A stretch of DNA of 32,000 nt from Candidatus Harpocratesius repetitus (GCA_021498095.1 JAIZWK010000001.1:420001-452000), one strand, 5' to 3'; positions 5,698-19,880 are shown, counted from the first letter of the stretch. Translations and numbers: made by a program. Notes: generated by a model from the sequence alone, not told the origin.

Positions 5698-5806
5698 AGG
5701 ATATTTTATCTTTTTTAATTTAAACGCTTTTTTGAATATCATTTATATATATCCAACTTAAATCTGAAATATCGCAATTCTTTTTTTGTCGAACTCGATT
5801 TTTTCA
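5698..5806 (+). repeat. 109-bp dispersed intergenic repeat, copy A (inverted copy at 19771-19880)
   Basis: Manual alignment with the reverse complement of 19771-19880 gives 5 substitutions and 1 indel (in a T-run) over 110 nt. Confidence 0.93.
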
Positions 5807-6065: not shown

Positions 6066-7142
6066 TTACTGAACTTGATTTCCGCAATTTGTGCAGAATT
6101 TAGCATTTGAAAATATCAATTTGCTTCCACAATATGTACAGTAAACAGGATTATTTGTTTCGCTTACGTTAGTTTTAGGAATTGTAACTACTCCTATTTG
6201 TGGATATTGCACCATTGTTGGACCAGGACTTGAATGAGACGGAATGGATTGATATAAAAATTGCGTAGGTTGATAACCAATTTTTATATTCTTTTTCATT
6301 TGGTATTTAGGAATGATGTAAATTTCTTTAAATGAATATAGATTAAAACCATCAGATAATTTCTTTAATCCTATATTGAAAATGATATTTCCAACTGTAT
6401 TCTCTACAAGCATTACAGCAATACCTAATTTCATTAAATTACATCCTAATTCCATTTGTCGTAGAATTATAGAAGAATATCCATTTTCAACTTGTTCCAT
6501 TTGTAATAGGATCCATTTTTTAAATGCATTCCAGCTAAGATAATTAACTCTCTTTTCTGCAAGCGAAGAAATTACAAGCATAATCCCCAATATAATAATT
6601 ATAGGATCAATTCCAAAGATTTCTGGATAATGAGAAATATCATAAAATACTCTATTTATATTAGCGAAAACATTAATCATACGGTAATAAGCATCTAATT
6701 GTGTGAGCACACGTTTAGCAATCAGAAAAAATATAAAAACTAGAAAAGCATAAAGTAGTAATCGAATTTTCTGATACCTGAATGCTTCACTAAATTGCCG
6801 ATCATTAACTTGCTTTGAAGTTTGATTCAATTGTATTATAAAATTAATATTACCAATTAATCGAGGTATAGATAGGAATATAAATCCAAATATAAACAAG
6901 CTTAAAGGGATACTTGAATAACTACTTCCATCACCAGAATTTATGTTACTCGACCAAATTAAAATGGGCCCCATGAATATTTTTTGAAAATACGATTTAA
7001 AGGCAAAGAGAATTGTAAAAATAATAAATATCCAGCGGGTTGTATTTAGTGTTTTAAAGCTTTTCCCAAGTTCTATAAATTTTTCACGAAGTGGCGCATT
7101 TAATTCTCTCTTTAATGGTTTATTAAATGTATCTTTATACAT
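6066..7142 (-). CDS. Membrane protein with C-terminal double zinc ribbon
   Basis: Several hydrophobic segments, a Pro/Gln-rich linker and terminal CTYCG...FCTNCG. Confidence 0.75.
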   Translation of the reverse strand: MYKDTFNKPLKRELNAPLREKFIELGKSFKTLNTTRWIFIIFTILFAFKSYFQKIFMGPILIWSSNINSGDGSSYSSIPLSLFIFGFIFLSIPRLIGNINFIIQLNQTSKQVNDRQFSEAFRYQKIRLLLYAFLVFIFFLIAKRVLTQLDAYYRMINVFANINRVFYDISHYPEIFGIDPIIIILGIMLVISSLAEKRVNYLSWNAFKKWILLQMEQVENGYSSIILRQMELGCNLMKLGIAVMLVENTVGNIIFNIGLKKLSDGFNLYSFKEIYIIPKYQMKKNIKIGYQPTQFLYQSIPSHSSPGPTMVQYPQIGVVTIPKTNVSETNNPVYCTYCGSKLIFSNAKFCTNCGNQVQ

Positions 7143-7334: not shown

Positions 7335-8411
7335 ATGAGCTTTGATGAAACGATAAATTTAGAATTTCTTAAAAAATTTGTAAATGCACCTTCTCCAACA
7401 GGCTCTGAAGAACCTGCACAAAAATTATATCAAGACTATTTAAAAGATATTGCTGATGAAATCAAAACGGACGTATTAGGCAATGTAGATGCTGTTTTGA
7501 ATCCTAATGGAAAACCTCGTATTGTTTTAATGGGACATGTCGATGAAGTAGGTTTGCAAGTGCGTTATATATCTGATAAAGGATTCATTTACTTTAATCC
7601 ATTAGGTGGATTGGATGCACATCTCTTACCCAGCAAACGTATAACAATTCTAGCAAAATCTGGCAATATTTTTGGAGTAATTGGAAAAAAAGCAATTCAT
7701 CTTCAAGAACCAGACGAACGTAAAAAAGTAATAAAAATTCAAGACCAATACATTGATGTAGGAGCAAGATCAAGAGAAGAAGTGGAAAAAATGGGTATCC
7801 AAATAGGTGATCCTATTATTTTCAATGATTCATTTGCCTACTTAGGTAATAATGGAGATGTTGTTAGTCGATGTTTTGATGATAAAATTGGTGCTTTTAT
7901 AATTGCTGAGGTGTTACGTTATTTAAAACAAGAAAATATTGAAGCATCCATTCATGCTGTTTCAAGTGTTCAAGAGGAAATTGGCACTCGTGGAGCAGTA
8001 GTTTCAGCGTTTAGTGTTGATCCTGATGTTGGAATTGCTTTCGATGTAACACACACCAGTGATACTCCTGGAATAAAAGAAGCAGATTTAGGAATAAAAA
8101 AACTCGGCGGCGGTCCTGTGATTGTACGAGGTCCTAATATTAATCCAAAACTCTATGAATTATTCGTTAAAACTGCTGAAGAACTAGAAATACCTCTCCA
8201 GATAAGTGCTGCTTCTAGACCGACAGGAACTGATGCTCGTTCAATTCAAATGACCCGAGCAGGAGTTGCGACAGGTTTAATTGGAATTCCTAATAGATAC
8301 ATGCACAGCATGACTGAAATTGTAAATTTGAAAGATGTGGAACAGATTGTGAAACTAACCGTCGCAGTTATTAAGAAAATCACCAAAGACACTTCTTTCA
8401 TTCCAGAATAA
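7335..8411 (+). CDS. M42 family metallopeptidase (TET aminopeptidase/FrvX-like), paralog 1
   Basis: PSPTGSE, GHVDEVG, FDDKIG, QEEIG, DVTH, GTDA and RYMHS; metal ligands intact. Confidence 0.93.
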   Translation: MSFDETINLEFLKKFVNAPSPTGSEEPAQKLYQDYLKDIADEIKTDVLGNVDAVLNPNGKPRIVLMGHVDEVGLQVRYISDKGFIYFNPLGGLDAHLLPSKRITILAKSGNIFGVIGKKAIHLQEPDERKKVIKIQDQYIDVGARSREEVEKMGIQIGDPIIFNDSFAYLGNNGDVVSRCFDDKIGAFIIAEVLRYLKQENIEASIHAVSSVQEEIGTRGAVVSAFSVDPDVGIAFDVTHTSDTPGIKEADLGIKKLGGGPVIVRGPNINPKLYELFVKTAEELEIPLQISAASRPTGTDARSIQMTRAGVATGLIGIPNRYMHSMTEIVNLKDVEQIVKLTVAVIKKITKDTSFIPE

Positions 8412-8435: not shown

Positions 8436-9512
8436 ATGACACTTCCCACATTGCCTTCCGATATCAAAGTAGATGAAAAATTTCTGCAATTATTGGTGAA
8501 TACTCCTAGTGTTTCTGGATATGAGACCTCTGCTCAGCATATATTTAAGGATTATCTTGCATCATATGTTGAAAGAATAAATACAGATGTAATGGGAAAT
8601 GTATTTGCAACCCTCAATTCCTCAGGAAGCCCCAAAATTATGTTGGCGGCACATTGTGATGAAGTGGGTTTACTAATTAAATATATTTCTAAGGATGGAT
8701 TCCTCTATTTCTATGCAAACGGCTTGGATCCTCATTTATTACCTGGAACATTTGTGAAAATCATTACAAATCAAGCGGAAATTTTAGGAGTGATTGGAAA
8801 AAAAGCAATTCACCTTCAAGAACCCAATGAACGAAAAAAAGTTGTTCAAATTTCAGATTTATTCATCGATATAGGGGCTCGTTCAAGAAAAGAAGTAGAA
8901 AGTCTTGGGATCAGAATAGGAGATTCAGCAATATTTGATTACTATTATGCTCGCTTAGGTTCTTCCGGAGATGTCGTTAGTCGCTGCTTTGATGATAAAA
9001 TAGGTGTATGTATTGTTGCTGAAATCATGAAGCGATTATCAGAGATTCAGCACGATCAAATTTCAGCTCAAGTAATCGGTGTATCAACTACACAAGAAGA
9101 GGTAGGATTGCGTGGTGCGACCACCGCTTCATTTCAAGTTGAACCAGATATCGCTTTAGTATATGACGTTGATTTTTCCATGGATACTCCGCATTCTCAA
9201 GAAAAATATCAAGGTCGAGCTAAATTAGGGGGCGGTCCAATTATTTCTATTGGTCCAAATATGAATTCAAAAGTTATTCAATTATTAAAGGAAACTGCGA
9301 ATGATTTGGATATTCCCATTCAATTAATCGCAGAACCAAGAGGAACTGGAACTGATGCAAATGTGATTCAATTAACAAAAAAAGGAGTAGCAATTGGTTT
9401 GATTGGAATTCCAAATCGATATATGCACAGTTATTCTGAAGTAGTTAATCTTTATGATGTTGAGGCAATAATCCAATTATCGGTCGAATTTATTAAGCGA
9501 GTGAAAGAATAA
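8436..9512 (+). CDS. M42 family metallopeptidase, paralog 2
   Basis: PSVSGYE, AHCDEVG, FDDKIG, QEEVG, DVDF, GTDA and RYMHS. Starts 24 bp after paralog 1 and has the same length (358 aa). Confidence 0.93.
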   Translation: MTLPTLPSDIKVDEKFLQLLVNTPSVSGYETSAQHIFKDYLASYVERINTDVMGNVFATLNSSGSPKIMLAAHCDEVGLLIKYISKDGFLYFYANGLDPHLLPGTFVKIITNQAEILGVIGKKAIHLQEPNERKKVVQISDLFIDIGARSRKEVESLGIRIGDSAIFDYYYARLGSSGDVVSRCFDDKIGVCIVAEIMKRLSEIQHDQISAQVIGVSTTQEEVGLRGATTASFQVEPDIALVYDVDFSMDTPHSQEKYQGRAKLGGGPIISIGPNMNSKVIQLLKETANDLDIPIQLIAEPRGTGTDANVIQLTKKGVAIGLIGIPNRYMHSYSEVVNLYDVEAIIQLSVEFIKRVKE

Positions 9513-10097: not shown

Positions 10098-10982
10098 ATG
10101 GGAAAAGAAAATAAAAAAAAGAAAAAAGGCTTATCTCAGCAAGAATACCGCAACAAGCTCATTAAAATAAAGAAGTTACTTTCTAATGTAAAGAATAAGA
10201 AAGAAATTGAAACACTTAAACTCGCACTACTAAAATTGTTTGAAGCGTCTAAAAATAATCCAGCTCTCCATAATTTGGAACCTTTTCGTATAACCTTGTT
10301 TAAAACCTGTAATCTAAATCTTCAATTTTTGAATTTAAATGAAGATGTTTGGGACCTTTTCTCTCAAGGTAAAATTGAAGATGCATATAACTTAATTCTT
10401 AAAGGGGTGGGATCTATGAATAATCATCCCGATCGTGAATATTTACATGGTTGGGTTAGAGAAAAAATTCAAAGTACTTTAGAAAAAATCGCAGATATTG
10501 CTACATCTAATAAAAAACACCAATCTGCTCAAATCACTTCTCAAATCTCACAAAAGCAAGGTGTAAATTCAGACACAATCATGAATCCACTTGGCCGAAA
10601 AATTGATTTAGCTCAAGATGGTAAACAAACAATCCTTTCTAATTCAGTAAATATGGATCATCTTGCATCACTGTCAAATACTCAAATGCCTACAATATTT
10701 CCAAATGGAAGAAAACAAAATGCGACTATAAAACCTCTACAATCTTCTCAAAGCGAAAAAACAATGAAATTAACCTCAAATCAGGAGTTTGAAACTTTAT
10801 TTAAACCTCAAAATTTTTCAGAACAGCAAGTTTTAAGAACTCCAGAAAACCCTTTTATAAAAAATGGGGAAAATGAAGAAGAAAATCCAATTCATACTTA
10901 CTGGATTCGGAATCAAAAAATAAAAAAGCAATTACAAGAGAGTTCTACTTTTCCTAAAAGGAAAAATGAAGAGAAAAATTGA
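10098..10982 (+). CDS. Hypothetical protein (basic helical N-terminal half, low-complexity Q/S/N-rich C-terminal half)
   Basis: 294-aa ORF filling the gap; no family motif recognised. Confidence 0.7.
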   Translation: MGKENKKKKKGLSQQEYRNKLIKIKKLLSNVKNKKEIETLKLALLKLFEASKNNPALHNLEPFRITLFKTCNLNLQFLNLNEDVWDLFSQGKIEDAYNLILKGVGSMNNHPDREYLHGWVREKIQSTLEKIADIATSNKKHQSAQITSQISQKQGVNSDTIMNPLGRKIDLAQDGKQTILSNSVNMDHLASLSNTQMPTIFPNGRKQNATIKPLQSSQSEKTMKLTSNQEFETLFKPQNFSEQQVLRTPENPFIKNGENEEENPIHTYWIRNQKIKKQLQESSTFPKRKNEEKN

Positions 10983-11024: not shown

Positions 11025-11978
11025 TCAATCTACATTTGAACGATTTAATGGATCAAATTTGGATAATATCTCATACAATGCCCATAAGACAATAAGAATT
11101 TTATTACTATCAATGCTTTTTGATCTTTTTACTATGAAATTTTCTTCAGCAATTTGTGATTTTAAATCATTATGAATTAATGAAAATATTTGATCAATCT
11201 CATCTAAAGCTTGTTCAAATTTCCCATTCTCGATAAAATACTGAAAAGATTTTGTTAGTTTTAATTGTTTCAAAGAAATTTTAGTTTGTTGTTCTGTGGT
11301 TAAATAAATTTTCGTGAATAACCATAATGTCGTTCGTATTCGAAATAAATATTCATTAAATTGGATAATTCTCTTTTTTTGTGAATTTTTATCTATTGTT
11401 TCACGGGTTTTTTGCTGAAAACTAATTCTTAATTCTTCAATAATTCTATCTGCTTCGTTTTCTGATATTTTCTTAATTTCTAAGTTTTCTTTGTATATAA
11501 ATAAAGAATCGATAAGATTTTCACCAAATTCAGCTTGAAACTCTAATACTTGAAATTTAAGGATGAATAGTAAAGAATAATTAAGAGATATCTTATATTC
11601 TTCTTTAGGATCTTGCTTGCTAAGAAAAGTTTTAATAAGATAAAAGAAACTATTCCAATCCCCTTGCTGAAATTTTATAAATATATCATCAACAGCATAT
11701 CGAAATTCTTTTTTGATATTTTTCCATTGTAATAGATCGAAAAAAATAGATCTTACCATTAAATAGATTTGTGGAGGAAAAATTTTCTGAAAATCAACTC
11801 CAATTGGATCATTATAATGTTTTGTCAATAATTCGACATTTGTAGAGAGGAGAGAGTCAAGTTTATTATTATCTAGTGGAGATTTAACAATCTTTCCCAC
11901 AGTTAGGATTTCTCCTTTTTCTAATGCTTTTTTTAATTCGTCGCTTATAATTATCACCTTTACTTTAACTGTTAACAA
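11025..11978 (-). CDS. Hypothetical all-alpha protein, last gene of the E2-JAB-E1 operon (start uncertain)
   Basis: Long open frame. The track's ATG at 12059 overlaps the E1 gene by 65 nt. In-frame alternatives are TTG 11978, GTG 11957, and ATA 11948, which lies 5 nt after AGGTGA. Confidence 0.7.
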   Translation of the reverse strand: MLTVKVKVIIISDELKKALEKGEILTVGKIVKSPLDNNKLDSLLSTNVELLTKHYNDPIGVDFQKIFPPQIYLMVRSIFFDLLQWKNIKKEFRYAVDDIFIKFQQGDWNSFFYLIKTFLSKQDPKEEYKISLNYSLLFILKFQVLEFQAEFGENLIDSLFIYKENLEIKKISENEADRIIEELRISFQQKTRETIDKNSQKKRIIQFNEYLFRIRTTLWLFTKIYLTTEQQTKISLKQLKLTKSFQYFIENGKFEQALDEIDQIFSLIHNDLKSQIAEENFIVKRSKSIDSNKILIVLWALYEILSKFDPLNRSNVD

Positions 11979-11994
11979 TGATCTATAATAATAC

Positions 11995-12846
11995 CTAAGG
12001 AGTTTCAGCAAGAAAAGCAGCAATCTCCTCAATTTCTGCTTTCTTTTGTTTTCGTTCAAGTTTTGATTCTTGTTTTAATATATCAGGATCAACTTCTTTT
12101 AAGATTTTGCGACATTCACATTGTTTTTGGCGAACTATACGCTCAAAATAAAAAGATTTTTCAAATCGAAGATCAAATTTAAATAATCCTGGAATTAAAG
12201 GGGGATCTGATGGAAGTGGTAAAAGTACTTGGCGAACACAATTTACCATAAAACCAGCTACAATTTGACTAGTATAAACAACACTGGGTTCAGGTTTTTG
12301 AATGCATGATGTTTCTTGCTGAGTCTCTTGATCTTGTACTGATTTAGGAAAAATACAATTTATACAGGGTGTTTTTCTGGTTAAAATTCCAATTTGACCC
12401 CCAAACCAAGATAATCCTCCATGAATCATAGGAATATTTTTACGAATACAATAATAATTCAATATTTTTCTCACTCTAATTCGATCAACACAATCAATAA
12501 CTAAATCTACTTTTCGAATTACTGAATCAATAGTTGTCTCTTCAATCCTTTCATCTATACCCACAATAATTAAGGAGGAGTTTCTTTCAATTAGTCGTTC
12601 AGCAAGTACTTCTGCTTTATTTTTACCTATATCTTTTTCACAGAAAAGTGATTGCCGATTTAAATTATGGGTAGAAATTGTATCAAAATCAAAAATTTTA
12701 ATTGTTCCAATTCCTAAGCCGATAAGACCAAGACATACATGATTTCCAAGAGCTCCTGCACCAATAACAGCAACACTTGCATTAGATAATTTTTCTTGAT
12801 TCCAACCTGGAATTCTAGATTGTCGATCATATTTTAAAGAATTCAT
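11995..12846 (-). CDS. ThiF/MoeB/E1-like adenylating enzyme
   Basis: YDRQ..I.GW.Q.KL, GAGALG, DFDTISTHNLNRQ, KAEV, DCVD, Zn ligands C161xxC164 and C243xC245, and candidate catalytic C181 (ETSC). Confidence 0.93.
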   Translation of the reverse strand: MNSLKYDRQSRIPGWNQEKLSNASVAVIGAGALGNHVCLGLIGLGIGTIKIFDFDTISTHNLNRQSLFCEKDIGKNKAEVLAERLIERNSSLIIVGIDERIEETTIDSVIRKVDLVIDCVDRIRVRKILNYYCIRKNIPMIHGGLSWFGGQIGILTRKTPCINCIFPKSVQDQETQQETSCIQKPEPSVVYTSQIVAGFMVNCVRQVLLPLPSDPPLIPGLFKFDLRFEKSFYFERIVRQKQCECRKILKEVDPDILKQESKLERKQKKAEIEEIAAFLAETP

Positions 12847-13616
12847 AATTTAACCCTATTATTTTTTTTATTTTCAAAATGAATTTTATTTTTTAATTCC
12901 ATTTGAATTTCTTTTCTAATTCCAATTAAATCCAAATCATTGGGTAACGCTTTAATTATTTTAAACGAAGCAGATTCATGAAATATTTTCCCAGTAAAAA
13001 CTTGAGTGCTTACCAAACCAAAATACTTATGGTTTAAATTGACAGTTATTCCATAAACATATTTAACTTGAATTCCATTCCATTTTCTATAATTCGATGT
13101 CTCTGCCAAGAGAGTATCTTGATTGAAATAATCAGTACCTGAAAAAAACACATTAAGATTTGCATGACTGTGAGTCCAACCTAGAATTGTTAGATTTTTT
13201 TTGTGTATGTAAGAACTTAAATCTAAAAGATCGCGACCTTCTACGTTAACAGATGCAAAATGAACTTGTTGATTAGGAATAAGAATATCTTCAATTATAT
13301 GGTTTTTTCCTGTGCATAATGCATAGACCTCAACTTCTTTAGTCGTAATTTTTGTCACTTCTTCAGCCATAATAAACATTTTTTCTAAAGCATATTCAGT
13401 TATTAAAATTTCAGTAATTGGATGAAAACCGTTTAAAACCTCGAAAGAATCAACAGAAAAAGATGTTTCAGAAGGATTTTGGATATTTTGAAATTCTTTT
13501 TCTCTTATTATCTCTTTTTTCTTAATATTATTTTGTCTATTGGGGATCTCAGTTATAATTGTTTTATTTAATATCTCTTCAATAGAATTTCCAACCAAAA
13601 TCTTCTTTTTTGACAT
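12843..13616 (-). CDS. JAB/MPN+ (JAMM) metallopeptidase
   Basis: E96 plus H149-S-H151-x7-S159-x2-D162 (GWTHSHANLNVFFSGTD). Its stop overlaps the E1 start (ATGA). Confidence 0.9.
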   Translation of the reverse strand: MSKKKILVGNSIEEILNKTIITEIPNRQNNIKKKEIIREKEFQNIQNPSETSFSVDSFEVLNGFHPITEILITEYALEKMFIMAEEVTKITTKEVEVYALCTGKNHIIEDILIPNQQVHFASVNVEGRDLLDLSSYIHKKNLTILGWTHSHANLNVFFSGTDYFNQDTLLAETSNYRKWNGIQVKYVYGITVNLNHKYFGLVSTQVFTGKIFHESASFKIIKALPNDLDLIGIRKEIQMELKNKIHFENKKNNRVKL

Positions 13617-13629
13617 GTTTTTCCCTTTT

Positions 13630-14454
13630 TTACTTTTTTTTCTTCTTTTTAGTTGAAGTTATTGTTGCTAAGTATTTTGAGTATTGAGGTGTACCTAAAT
13701 GCCCATTTGCTGGTGATACGCGCCGATTATAACCTGTGATTAAAATCTGAACTGCTTGGCGTATCAAACTATTAATTGAATTAGCAAATCTTAATCGGTT
13801 GAATTCTTTTTCATCATCAGAATTATAAAAAGAACCCATACAAATTTTTTGACCAAAAAAGTGAAAATCCCGATAAACAAAAGGATGCTCATAAAATGAA
13901 TTTGGGGATTCTGCAATAACTTCTGGGTTTTCTGGATGTAAATTTTCATCAATTCGAATTGCAATAGTGCAAGCAGGCATCTGATAAACGAGATTTTCAA
14001 AATGAATTTGATAAGGAGGAAGATATCGAATCGCAGCTAAAGCTTTTTCTTGAGGATTTCGAAATAAAGGTTTCATTACAAATATTATATGACTTTCAGT
14101 TAAATTAGCAATATCTTGGGGAGGTATCTTCTCATATAGATCAATGAGAGATTTCTTTTCTCCTATAATTCTTCTCATATGCTGGTGATAGATTGTAAGA
14201 ATTTCTTTCAGTCTCCCCTTTAAATTGAGACCACGAATTGTACTATAAATAATACCATTGAAAATCACTATTTCTTTTGTTTGAATAACTGAAAGTAATT
14301 TAGATTGATGACTAAATGGAATTTTCTTTCCAATTTCAATGAAATCAGATAAGTACATCAAAGGACACATTTGATAAATCCGATTATCTTTGATAAAACT
14401 TACTCCTTCATGAGGAGATAATATTTCTTGAATTTCTTCAGTAAATGATTTCAT
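13630..14454 (-). CDS. Divergent E2/UBC-fold-like protein with N-terminal extension
   Basis: YEHPFVY...GQKICMG resembles the E2 HPN...GxICL active-site motif (H190, P191, C205), followed by helices ending in L.TGY. Lies 13 bp upstream of the JAB gene. Confidence 0.6.
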   Translation of the reverse strand: MKSFTEEIQEILSPHEGVSFIKDNRIYQMCPLMYLSDFIEIGKKIPFSHQSKLLSVIQTKEIVIFNGIIYSTIRGLNLKGRLKEILTIYHQHMRRIIGEKKSLIDLYEKIPPQDIANLTESHIIFVMKPLFRNPQEKALAAIRYLPPYQIHFENLVYQMPACTIAIRIDENLHPENPEVIAESPNSFYEHPFVYRDFHFFGQKICMGSFYNSDDEKEFNRLRFANSINSLIRQAVQILITGYNRRVSPANGHLGTPQYSKYLATITSTKKKKKK

Positions 14455-14580: not shown

Positions 14581-15255
14581 ATGTTTACACTATCCACTCG
14601 TACGAGTTGGCAAAAGGAACAAACACGCCTTGATTTAACTGATATGAAGGAATTTTTATATCCATATCCCTTAATTGAAAGGAAATTTTTTGATGATCTC
14701 ATGAAATTATGCCGCTCCCAAGCCACTTACTATGTTGAAATGGGATTAATCAGTGTTTTCAATAATAAAAAACAGCAATTAAATCCAGATACATGGATTT
14801 TAATTTGGGCTTTGGATTTTAAAGATCGAGTCTATCAAATTCTGATTGATCGAAATGTGAAGCATAAAGGAAGAGGTGCAATAGCAGCAGTAGGTCCTCA
14901 AGATTTAGGTGAATTTTTTGCACGAATGAAGCAAAATGCTATCCTTCCTTTACTTACTTTAATTAATACACCAGAAAAAATGAAATCAGTAGGTGTTATT
15001 GTATCTCGTCCAAAATCTTATAGAGATAAACAAAAAGAGCGCCAAGAGTTTCAAGCGTTTGCTAGATTCCAAAAATGGATAGCCCAATTAAAAGCCACAC
15101 CTAATAAAGAGGGGCAATGGTTTCCAAGTTCAGCTCCAAAATGTCCTGTTTGTGGTAATCCATTAGTTGGAATTTCAGACAATTATCGAATTGGGTTTGG
15201 ATATTTGATATGCCCAGAATGCGGTCATAGTGAACGTCGTAGAATTGGTATGTAA
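14581..15255 (+). CDS. Hypothetical protein with C-terminal zinc ribbon
   Basis: CPVCG...LICPECG at the C-terminus; divergent from the E2-like gene across 126 bp. Confidence 0.8.
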   Translation: MFTLSTRTSWQKEQTRLDLTDMKEFLYPYPLIERKFFDDLMKLCRSQATYYVEMGLISVFNNKKQQLNPDTWILIWALDFKDRVYQILIDRNVKHKGRGAIAAVGPQDLGEFFARMKQNAILPLLTLINTPEKMKSVGVIVSRPKSYRDKQKERQEFQAFARFQKWIAQLKATPNKEGQWFPSSAPKCPVCGNPLVGISDNYRIGFGYLICPECGHSERRRIGM

Positions 15256-19770: not shown

Positions 19771-19880
19771 TGAAACAATCGAGTTCGACAAAAAAAAGAA
19801 TTGCGATATTTCAGAATTAAGTCGGATATATATAATTGATATTCAAAAAAACGTTTAAATTAAAAAAGATAAAATATCCT
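19771..19880 (-). repeat. 110-bp dispersed intergenic repeat, copy B (inverted relative to 5698-5806)
   Basis: Reverse complement aligns to copy A at ~95%. Ends 32 bp upstream of the 19738 start and contains a TTATATATA TATA-like tract. Confidence 0.93.

Follow-up and report, generated by a model that had tools for sequence, protein, structure and literature searches.

Several systems that join the enzymes of ubiquitin-like conjugation in one locus have been described in prokaryotes. The BilABCD operons of bacteria (Bacterial ISG15-like; 6C/CEHH operons) carry, in this order, genes for a ubiquitin-like protein (Ubl), an E2, a deubiquitinase (DUB) and an E1; BilC removes a C-terminal extension of BilA, and BilD has tandem inactive and active adenylation domains (IAD-AAD) with an inserted CYS domain (bioRxiv 10.1101/2023.09.26.559546). 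The ubiquitin operon of Caldiarchaeum and Asgard archaea encodes ubiquitin, E1, E2, a small RING E3 and an Rpn11-like peptidase (PMC5654768, PMC6043591). Here we analyze an operon of the Asgard archaeon Candidatus Harpocratesius repetitus, located at positions 11,025 to 14,454 of a stretch of 32,000 nucleotides (GCA_021498095.1 JAIZWK010000001.1:420001-452000; below, the window) in a genome that consists of a single 4.36-Mb contig. It encodes an E2-like protein (E2L), a JAB/JAMM peptidase (JAB), an E1 and a fourth protein, X. In our view, these genes probably supply the enzymes for a ubiquitin-like conjugation system that is fixed in the chromosome, with a protein of about 100 residues ending in HxGG, here encoded in trans, as the modifier. 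We read the module as one that both conjugates and deconjugates, with a Bil-type gene order and with E2 and tag families that are new in sequence. The operon was undescribed in the literature covered by our full-text search.

As the initial annotation had proposed, four ORFs (open reading frames) lie head to tail on the minus strand: E2L at 14454..13630 (274 amino acids, aa), JAB at 13616..12843 (257 aa), the E1 at 12846..11995 (283 aa, with a TAG stop at 11995-11997) and X, whose ORF spans 12059..11025. Comparison with homologues places the start of X at a GTG at 11957, not at the TTG at 12059, so that the gene runs 11957..11025 and its product has 310 aa. The tight packing first reported also stands, with 13 nt between E2L and JAB, an ATGA overlap of JAB and E1, and X beginning 37 nt past the E1 stop. 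The G+C content of the region, 25-30%, is similar to that of the surrounding DNA, and the best relatives are all from Promethearchaeota/Lokiarchaeia. Homologues were found for every gene of the operon, and at least 10 other loci have the genes in the same order; thus, this is an operon and not a chance set of ORFs. A survey of relatives, which the initial annotation had advised, found the order E2L-JAB-E1-X kept in one Lokiarchaeal family, both in the cultured species Lokiarchaeum ossiferum (L001, L002 and L045) and Promethearchaeum syntrophicum MK-D1 (L041) and in metagenome-assembled genomes (L003, L005, L006, L039, L040 and L044). In a further metagenome-assembled genome (L004), there is no JAB gene at the operon position, and in another (L047) there are two E2L genes in tandem.

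The E1 matches PF00899 over residues 8-245 of 283 (E 2.1e-54, 184.6 bits against a cut-off of 28.1), and among solved structures its best matches are ThiF (5e-28), the Uba1 domain for active adenylation (3e-25) and MoeB. It is made of one adenylation domain, without a separate Cys domain or UFD, and has a charged C-terminal tail. Nine sequences, distant ones included, share G29-x-G31-x-x-G34, N61-L-N63-R64-Q65, C161, C164, C181, C243 and C245 without exception. We take C161, C164, C243 and C245 to form a MoeB-type zinc site; C181 is part of the crossover loop, where a pairwise alignment puts it four residues away from the loop Cys of Escherichia coli ThiF. A second minimal E1 paralogue, MoeB/UbaA-like, lies at G000:C1:416022-416840 (-) on the same contig, 3 kb upstream of the window start and only 15 kb from the operon E1, with no ThiS-type gene nearby.

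Taken singly, the JAB sequence stays under the Pfam gathering scores for JAB and Prok-JAB (17.5 and 17.3 bits against 22.5 and 25). The family profile of 8 members has the Caldiarchaeum Rpn11-like protein (6fjv) as its top match, at E 1.1e-9, followed by Rpn11, AMSH, BRCC36 and CSN5. An E...HxH-x7-S-x2-D site is present, its zinc-site residues align with the motif of 6fjv, and E96 and H149-S-H151-x7-S159-x2-D162 are invariant in the 8 sequences, distant ones among them. In E2L, H190, P191 and C205 are likewise invariant in an alignment of 31 sequences. All the catalytic residues that had been named for the three enzymes are therefore present and unchanged across relatives.

The kinship of the E1 with ThiF and MoeB, its best matches, and its retained Cys4 zinc site of MoeB type would also fit a sulfur carrier pathway in the style of SAMP/UbaA or Urm1/Uba4, in which the E1 makes a thiocarboxylate on a GG-ended protein for tRNA thiolation or cofactor synthesis and conjugation is secondary or absent. 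GG-ended carriers are the rule in such pathways, and in L. ossiferum the third gene upstream of the operon encodes a rhodanese. Nevertheless, we regard sulfur transfer as very improbable for the main role, because the genome has better MoeB/UbaA-like E1s and six ThiS/MoaD-like proteins elsewhere and because sulfur-transfer systems need no E2. The operon E1 remains under the NCBIfam equivalog cut-offs for ThiF (157.9 bits against 275), MoeB (122.3 against 449) and UbaA (106.7 against 450); two paralogues in the same genome score far higher on the MoeB and UbaA models, with 250 and 197 bits and with 230 and 165 bits. A grouping of the E1 with MoeB/UbaA, which the initial annotation had named as counting against its proposal, is thus not what these scores indicate, since the operon E1 fits those models worse than either paralogue. 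In addition, the operon retains both E2L, with its invariant Cys, and the JAMM peptidase throughout distant lineages, and it has no conserved sulfurtransferase.

The assignment of E2L to the E2 enzymes rests on its predicted fold and a motif, because sequence links to solved E2s failed. E2L matched nothing in Pfam (E <=0.1, PF00179 included), NCBIfam or PADLOC; hhalign against the canonical E2 of the same genome gave E 0.13 and no sequence link, and a search of the PDB with the family profile matched no E2. An AlphaFold2 model built from 31 homologues (predicted local distance difference test score, pLDDT, 83) has two domains, of which residues from about 100 to 263 are predicted to form a UBC-fold core that holds the stretch YEHPF...GQKICMG with C205. 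In an exhaustive structural comparison of this model by VIA-align, all of the 50 best rows were UBC, UEV or RWD proteins. The best row aligned 129 residues over about 100-263 with a root mean square deviation of 4.1 A and a Z of 7.8, which is middling, as is any Z <8 by the tool's own note. Canonical eukaryotic E2s, at Z 7-7.8, scored higher than the other E2-type groups listed (UFC1, 5.1; Cap2, 5.5; Bub E2, 5.5; CdnG-associated E2, 4.8; Atg3, 4.3). With Foldseek against the PDB, E2s recurred in the best rows at E >=0.14, the first row being an unrelated endonuclease; an Atlas fold search with E2L was uninformative.

To our eye, YEHPFVY..GQKICMG recalls the HPN...C active-site stretch of E2s, and this presumed correspondence makes C205 the candidate catalytic Cys, with Phe in place of the Asn of HPN and with 15 residues from H to C, where the canonical spacing is 10. 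A profile search of 1.84 billion representative proteins returned 45 relatives of E2L. Inspection of the 43 newly found ones showed HP(F/Y)...C in most full-length members; the relatives range from 190 to 490 aa, and the more distant ones have the canonical spacing of 10 residues. A very distant relative of 467 aa, from another archaeon, is encoded in the order E2L, JAB-domain protein (950 aa), ThiF (466 aa), a 259-aa protein and a ClpB-like ATPase, which argues that the association of E2L, JAB and E1 is a property of the whole family. By predicted fold plus motif, then, E2L appears to be a UBC/E2-superfamily protein, and the UBC fold on which the initial call for the product of 13630-14454 depended is indeed predicted.

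UEV and RWD domains were also among the fold matches (Z 4.2-6.5). Together with the missing Asn and the lack of a PF00179 match, this could suggest that E2L is a non-catalytic adaptor of the UEV/RWD type, and that JAB and E1 operate without an E2 step as in E2-independent SAMPylation. We find this extremely hard to credit, given that H, P and Cys are kept throughout a family so varied in length, that its distant members have canonical spacing and that catalytic E2s rank above UEV and RWD in the fold search.

The candidate modifier is encoded next to these enzymes in distant relatives. Among weaker E2L matches in a search of 301 genomes of the phylum were three Asgard genomes from three further families (G025, G058 and G237), and in these the operon reads small protein, E2L, JAB, E1. 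The small protein has 108-122 aa and ends in HVGG, HVGG and HRGGN, respectively. When these cis-encoded proteins were used in tblastn, two homologues were found in the genome of the window itself (E 2e-13 to 3e-10). One, copy a, is at G000:C1:926990-927319 (+) and ends in LDLVTSHSGG followed by a stop; the second is at G000:C1:4123746-4124057 (-) and ends in HHSGG followed by a stop. The tail of copy a presumably has the same spacing as that of ubiquitin. All 11 members of the family examined end either in HxGG and a stop or in HxGG, one further residue (F, N or K) and a stop. A terminus of the HxGG type is a hallmark of conjugatable ubiquitin-like proteins, and the one-residue extension would mark a precursor for the JAMM peptidase to trim, as BilC does with BilA.

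Whole-genome searches with the Pfam ubiquitin and ThiS models recovered neither copy. The modifier had no match in Pfam or among PDB sequences, and hhalign against the ThiS-like proteins and the ubiquitin of the same genome gave nothing. Its Atlas language-model neighbours that carry a family name are all beta-grasp proteins; their scores of 0.82-0.86 are a lead only. The earlier statement that no Ubl gene is present therefore holds within the window and fails for the genome, with its two candidate modifier genes elsewhere. Nor did the idea that the system as such lacks a Ubl gain support: distant relatives encode the HxGG family in cis, this genome does so in trans, and the family co-occurs with E2L.

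This co-occurrence is strict. Across all 161 genomes of the class, E2L is found in 12 and the HxGG family in 12, and these are the same 12; in the 301 genomes sampled from the phylum, E2L is found in 8, and the HxGG family in the same 8 plus one marginal match (E 7e-4) that contains a stop codon. The two genes are unlinked in 11 of the 12 class genomes. Both are absent from three further members of the same family, whose genomes are 76-91% complete, and none of the 135 genomes of the sister family has either. MK-D1 (L041) has two copies of the modifier, L. ossiferum (L045) one, and the genome with tandem E2L genes (L047) two or three.

Copy a is part of a block that reads zinc-ribbon (81 aa), modifier, cyclophilin, RIO kinase in six genomes, both cultured species included. 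Since this block is conserved, the relocation of the modifier seems to be old and stable. The 81-aa zinc-ribbon gene (G000:C1:926618-926863) lies directly upstream of copy a, a position kept in at least four related genomes.

A complex of an E1 dimer with the modifier was also predicted. The interface score (ipSAE) had a median of 0.47, against 0.01 for the best control, with a partner pLDDT of at least 74. In calibration, 58 of 80 solved complexes and 2 of 110 mismatches attained the mark; scores of 0.60 or lower were given by only 7 of the 80 solved complexes and by both of the mismatches that passed. E1-Ubl complexes have already been solved, and memory of those structures may contribute to the score. 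We take the prediction as weak support for a pairing of E1 and modifier.

Protein X has very few relatives, with 2 matches among 5.8 billion clusters; it matched no family in Pfam, NCBIfam or PADLOC, and an Atlas feature search gave nothing usable. Its positional homologues share 14-29% identity and 9 invariant columns, all but one of them within the first 62 residues. Conservation extends over some 95 residues at the N terminus (ELKKALExGxhhxVG ... YNxPIGIDFxK, where Lys58 is invariant), and the rest is hypervariable. The first of these motifs recurs at the N terminus of a short fourth gene (92-143 aa) in the distant operons, and a comparable short motif, hhVGxS-helix, is conserved at the N terminus of JAB, before its catalytic domain. 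From these sequences, we infer that the N-terminal motifs of X and JAB may be docking strands for the modifier or for E2L, and on that reading X would be an adaptor or a dedicated substrate. The possibility raised earlier, that X itself is the modifier, was rejected: its C terminus is unconserved and has no Gly-Gly, and it is the separate HxGG family, in cis or in trans, that co-occurs perfectly with E2L.

The surroundings of the operon also bear on its role. Conserved flanking genes are GDPD, an FGGY kinase and a divergently transcribed zinc-ribbon gene, frequently joined by an actin gene, which implies a vertically inherited chromosomal locus; in several genomes, the operon sits between the FGGY kinase, GDPD and the actin gene. 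That this place among housekeeping genes is stable speaks for a function in regulation or proteostasis more than for defence against viruses. A defence module was what the initial annotation had suggested. Such a module, of the Bil type, would respond to infection by attaching the Ubl to virion or host proteins, with X as a sensor or specificity subunit and the JAMM peptidase setting the threshold. The ancestral order Ubl-E2-DUB-E1 is that of BilABCD (bioRxiv 10.1101/2023.09.26.559546), the distribution is patchy (12 of 161 class genomes, 0 of 135 sister-family genomes) and X evolves very fast, all of which would agree with it. The E1 moreover matches the PADLOC models of CBASS Cap2 (E 5e-20), which, as CBASS 'E1-E2' models, make up all the listed matches (best 25 of 34 families), with the match confined to the generic adenylation domain.

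We nonetheless consider a defence role unlikely. E2L, JAB and X have no PADLOC match, and the position of the operon among metabolic and cytoskeletal genes is the same in several genera. The modifier, for its part, lies in the conserved cyclophilin/RIO kinase block here, and in G025 the cis modifier gene has a proteasome alpha-subunit gene (L022, G025:C4, 8597-9322, +) as its divergent neighbour. No integrase, transposase or neighbouring defence gene was seen, and the inverted 90-nt repeats on either side of the operon are dispersed in about 50 copies. The E1 has a single ThiF domain and not the tandem inactive and active adenylation domains and CYS domain of BilD. In the fold search, canonical eukaryotic E2s (Z 7.8) stand above those of Cap2, Bub and CdnG-associated systems (Z 4.8-5.5), and in general the components look nearer to archaeal or eukaryotic Rpn11 and canonical E2s than to the versions found in bacterial defence. 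The suggestion of defence has thus gained no positive support, and what keeps it alive is the patchy spread and the hypervariable X.

Along with the operon, the genome encodes a separate canonical set, consisting of a PF00240 ubiquitin ending in GGY, a PF00179 E2 and a 573-aa E1-like protein; this agrees with the initial proposal that the module, for conjugation and deconjugation, is something other than the canonical Asgard ubiquitin set. With this set and a 561-aa E2-E1 fusion in the genome, the operon is an additional, parallel system. The fusion, which lies outside the window at G000:C1:2402507-2404192 (-), has an N-terminal E2-like region and a ThiF domain; it matches the anti-phage 6A-MBL cap2_3 model weakly, below the cut-off (E 3e-13), and may be a separate fusion of the defence type.

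We imagine that the operon works as follows. The E1, probably a MoeB-like homodimer, would adenylate the terminal Gly of the modifier and take it over as a thioester on C181 of the crossover loop; the modifier would then move to C205 of E2L and finally be joined to lysine residues of its targets. X combines a conserved N-terminal motif, presumed to serve in docking, with a variable body, and could act as a specificity factor or be a dedicated substrate. The JAMM peptidase would trim the one-residue extension that follows the GG of some modifiers and would also reverse the conjugates.

Several points weigh against this interpretation. The thioester, conjugation and cleavage steps are all ones that we infer. 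The E2 assignment depends on a predicted model whose best match has only the middling Z of 7.8, neither hhalign nor the profile search of the PDB linked E2L to solved E2s by sequence, and its active site would depart from that of E2s both in the Phe that replaces the Asn of HPN and in an H-to-C distance of 15 instead of 10. The suggested beta-grasp fold of the modifier has no sequence support from Pfam, the PDB or hhalign. The full agreement of E2L and modifier in 12 of 12 genomes overstates their independence because the genomes are kin, yet several joint gains or losses are still required to explain the pattern. Lastly, a patchy distribution, with none of 135 sister-family genomes positive, and a hypervariable component such as X are also typical of defence systems.

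Other genes and repeats around the operon were considered as parts of the system and set aside. The divergent zinc-ribbon gene at 14581-15255 (+) does not co-vary with the operon and was rejected as a fifth component: it is widespread in the order and found in 83 of 301 phylum genomes, among them 64 of 69 of the sister family without the operon, whereas the three distant carriers do not have it. Its highly conserved product of 224 aa is predicted by AlphaFold2 (pLDDT 82) to have a DUF22-like N-terminal domain (AFDB E 2.5e-8; no solved fold above Z 3.8), a long helix and a CxxC...CxxC zinc ribbon; an Atlas feature search with it gave nothing usable. In many sister-family genomes, the match to this gene has one in-frame stop (TAA, TAG or TGA), which could reflect a split gene or recoding. 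The convergent gene Y (10098-10982) adjoins X in some genomes only and was not retained as a member. A fifth conserved gene in the distant operons, encoding 177-198 aa (L022, 4152-4685, -; L023, 8970-9566, +; L024, 4752-7667, +), is fused to a long TPR-repeat region in one genome; having no homologue in the genome of the window, it was rejected as a component here. Inverted 90-nt repeats at 5698-5787 and 19791-19880 bracket 14 kb around the operon and were tried as the borders of a mobile island. They are copies of an AT-rich dispersed repeat with about 50 genome copies at 95-100% identity, which looks like a MITE-like element (miniature inverted-repeat transposable element), and their inverted orientation in the window looks like chance placement. 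Elsewhere in the window, three ORFs have exactly 358 aa, at 6066-7142 (-), 7335-8411 (+) and 8436-9512 (+); the two on the plus strand, in tandem, share about 70% identity over 300 nt. The ORFs are probably paralogous peptidase-like genes.

The operon bears on the origin of the many eukaryotic ubiquitin-like cascades. What has been attributed to Asgard archaea until now is the canonical Ub/E1/E2/RING set. MK-D1 and L. ossiferum, the cultured organisms closest to eukaryotes, and the genome studied here carry an additional complete E1-E2-DUB-modifier system, whose E2 and modifier families escape Pfam, NCBIfam and PADLOC. One can envision that Lokiarchaeia of the Promethearchaeum/Lokiarchaeum family run a second, ubiquitin-independent tagging pathway, and that it is a surviving relative of the stem of one non-ubiquitin eukaryotic UBL cascade; the cascades meant could be those with a minimal E1 without UFD, an atypical E2 and a dedicated adaptor. 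We put this forward as a speculation that is quite unlikely to prove right. If it did, the proteins that are tagged, which may have links to the proteasome or to ribosome biogenesis, would reveal what role protein tagging played before eukaryotes. As an archaeal counterpart to the bacterial Bil operons, the system also bears on whether such cascades originated in immunity or in housekeeping. With the unlinked modifier identified, it can be tested at once, since it comprises five small soluble proteins.

How, then, does this system relate to those already known? CBASS Cap2/Cap3 likewise brings E1, E2 and JAMM activities together, and the E1 domain matches the Cap2 models; here, however, the E1 and the E2 are two different proteins, and neither a CD-NTase nor an effector is present. 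The Haloferax SAMP/UbaA/HvJAMM1 system, which is E2 independent, shares a minimal MoeB-like E1, a JAMM peptidase and a small GG-ended modifier whose gene lies apart from that of the E1. It differs in that E2L is an invariant member of the operon described here, that our E1 is far below the UbaA cut-off (106.7 bits against 450) and that our modifier matches no ThiS/MoaD models. The Caldiarchaeum/Asgard ubiquitin operon is, like ours, archaeal; its Rpn11-like peptidase, from Caldiarchaeum, is the best solved match of our JAMM protein, and the modelled UBC core of E2L comes closest to canonical eukaryotic E2s. However, our operon has no RING E3, its modifier is not PF00240, its E2 is not PF00179 and its E1 is minimal.

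The comparison with BilABCD is the richest in both directions. The E1 here is one ThiF domain of 283 aa with a Cys4 zinc site, and E2L has HPF...C where Bil has the C...H (CEHH) signature. E2L and JAB match no PADLOC model, the modifier is unlinked, and X adds a conserved fourth gene; the system is archaeal, with a stable chromosomal position and no defence context. Nevertheless, the same four roles are represented in both, some modifiers have a short extension past the conserved Gly, the E1 lacks a UFD, and the distant Asgard relatives share with BilABCD the gene order Ubl, E2, JAMM DUB and E1.

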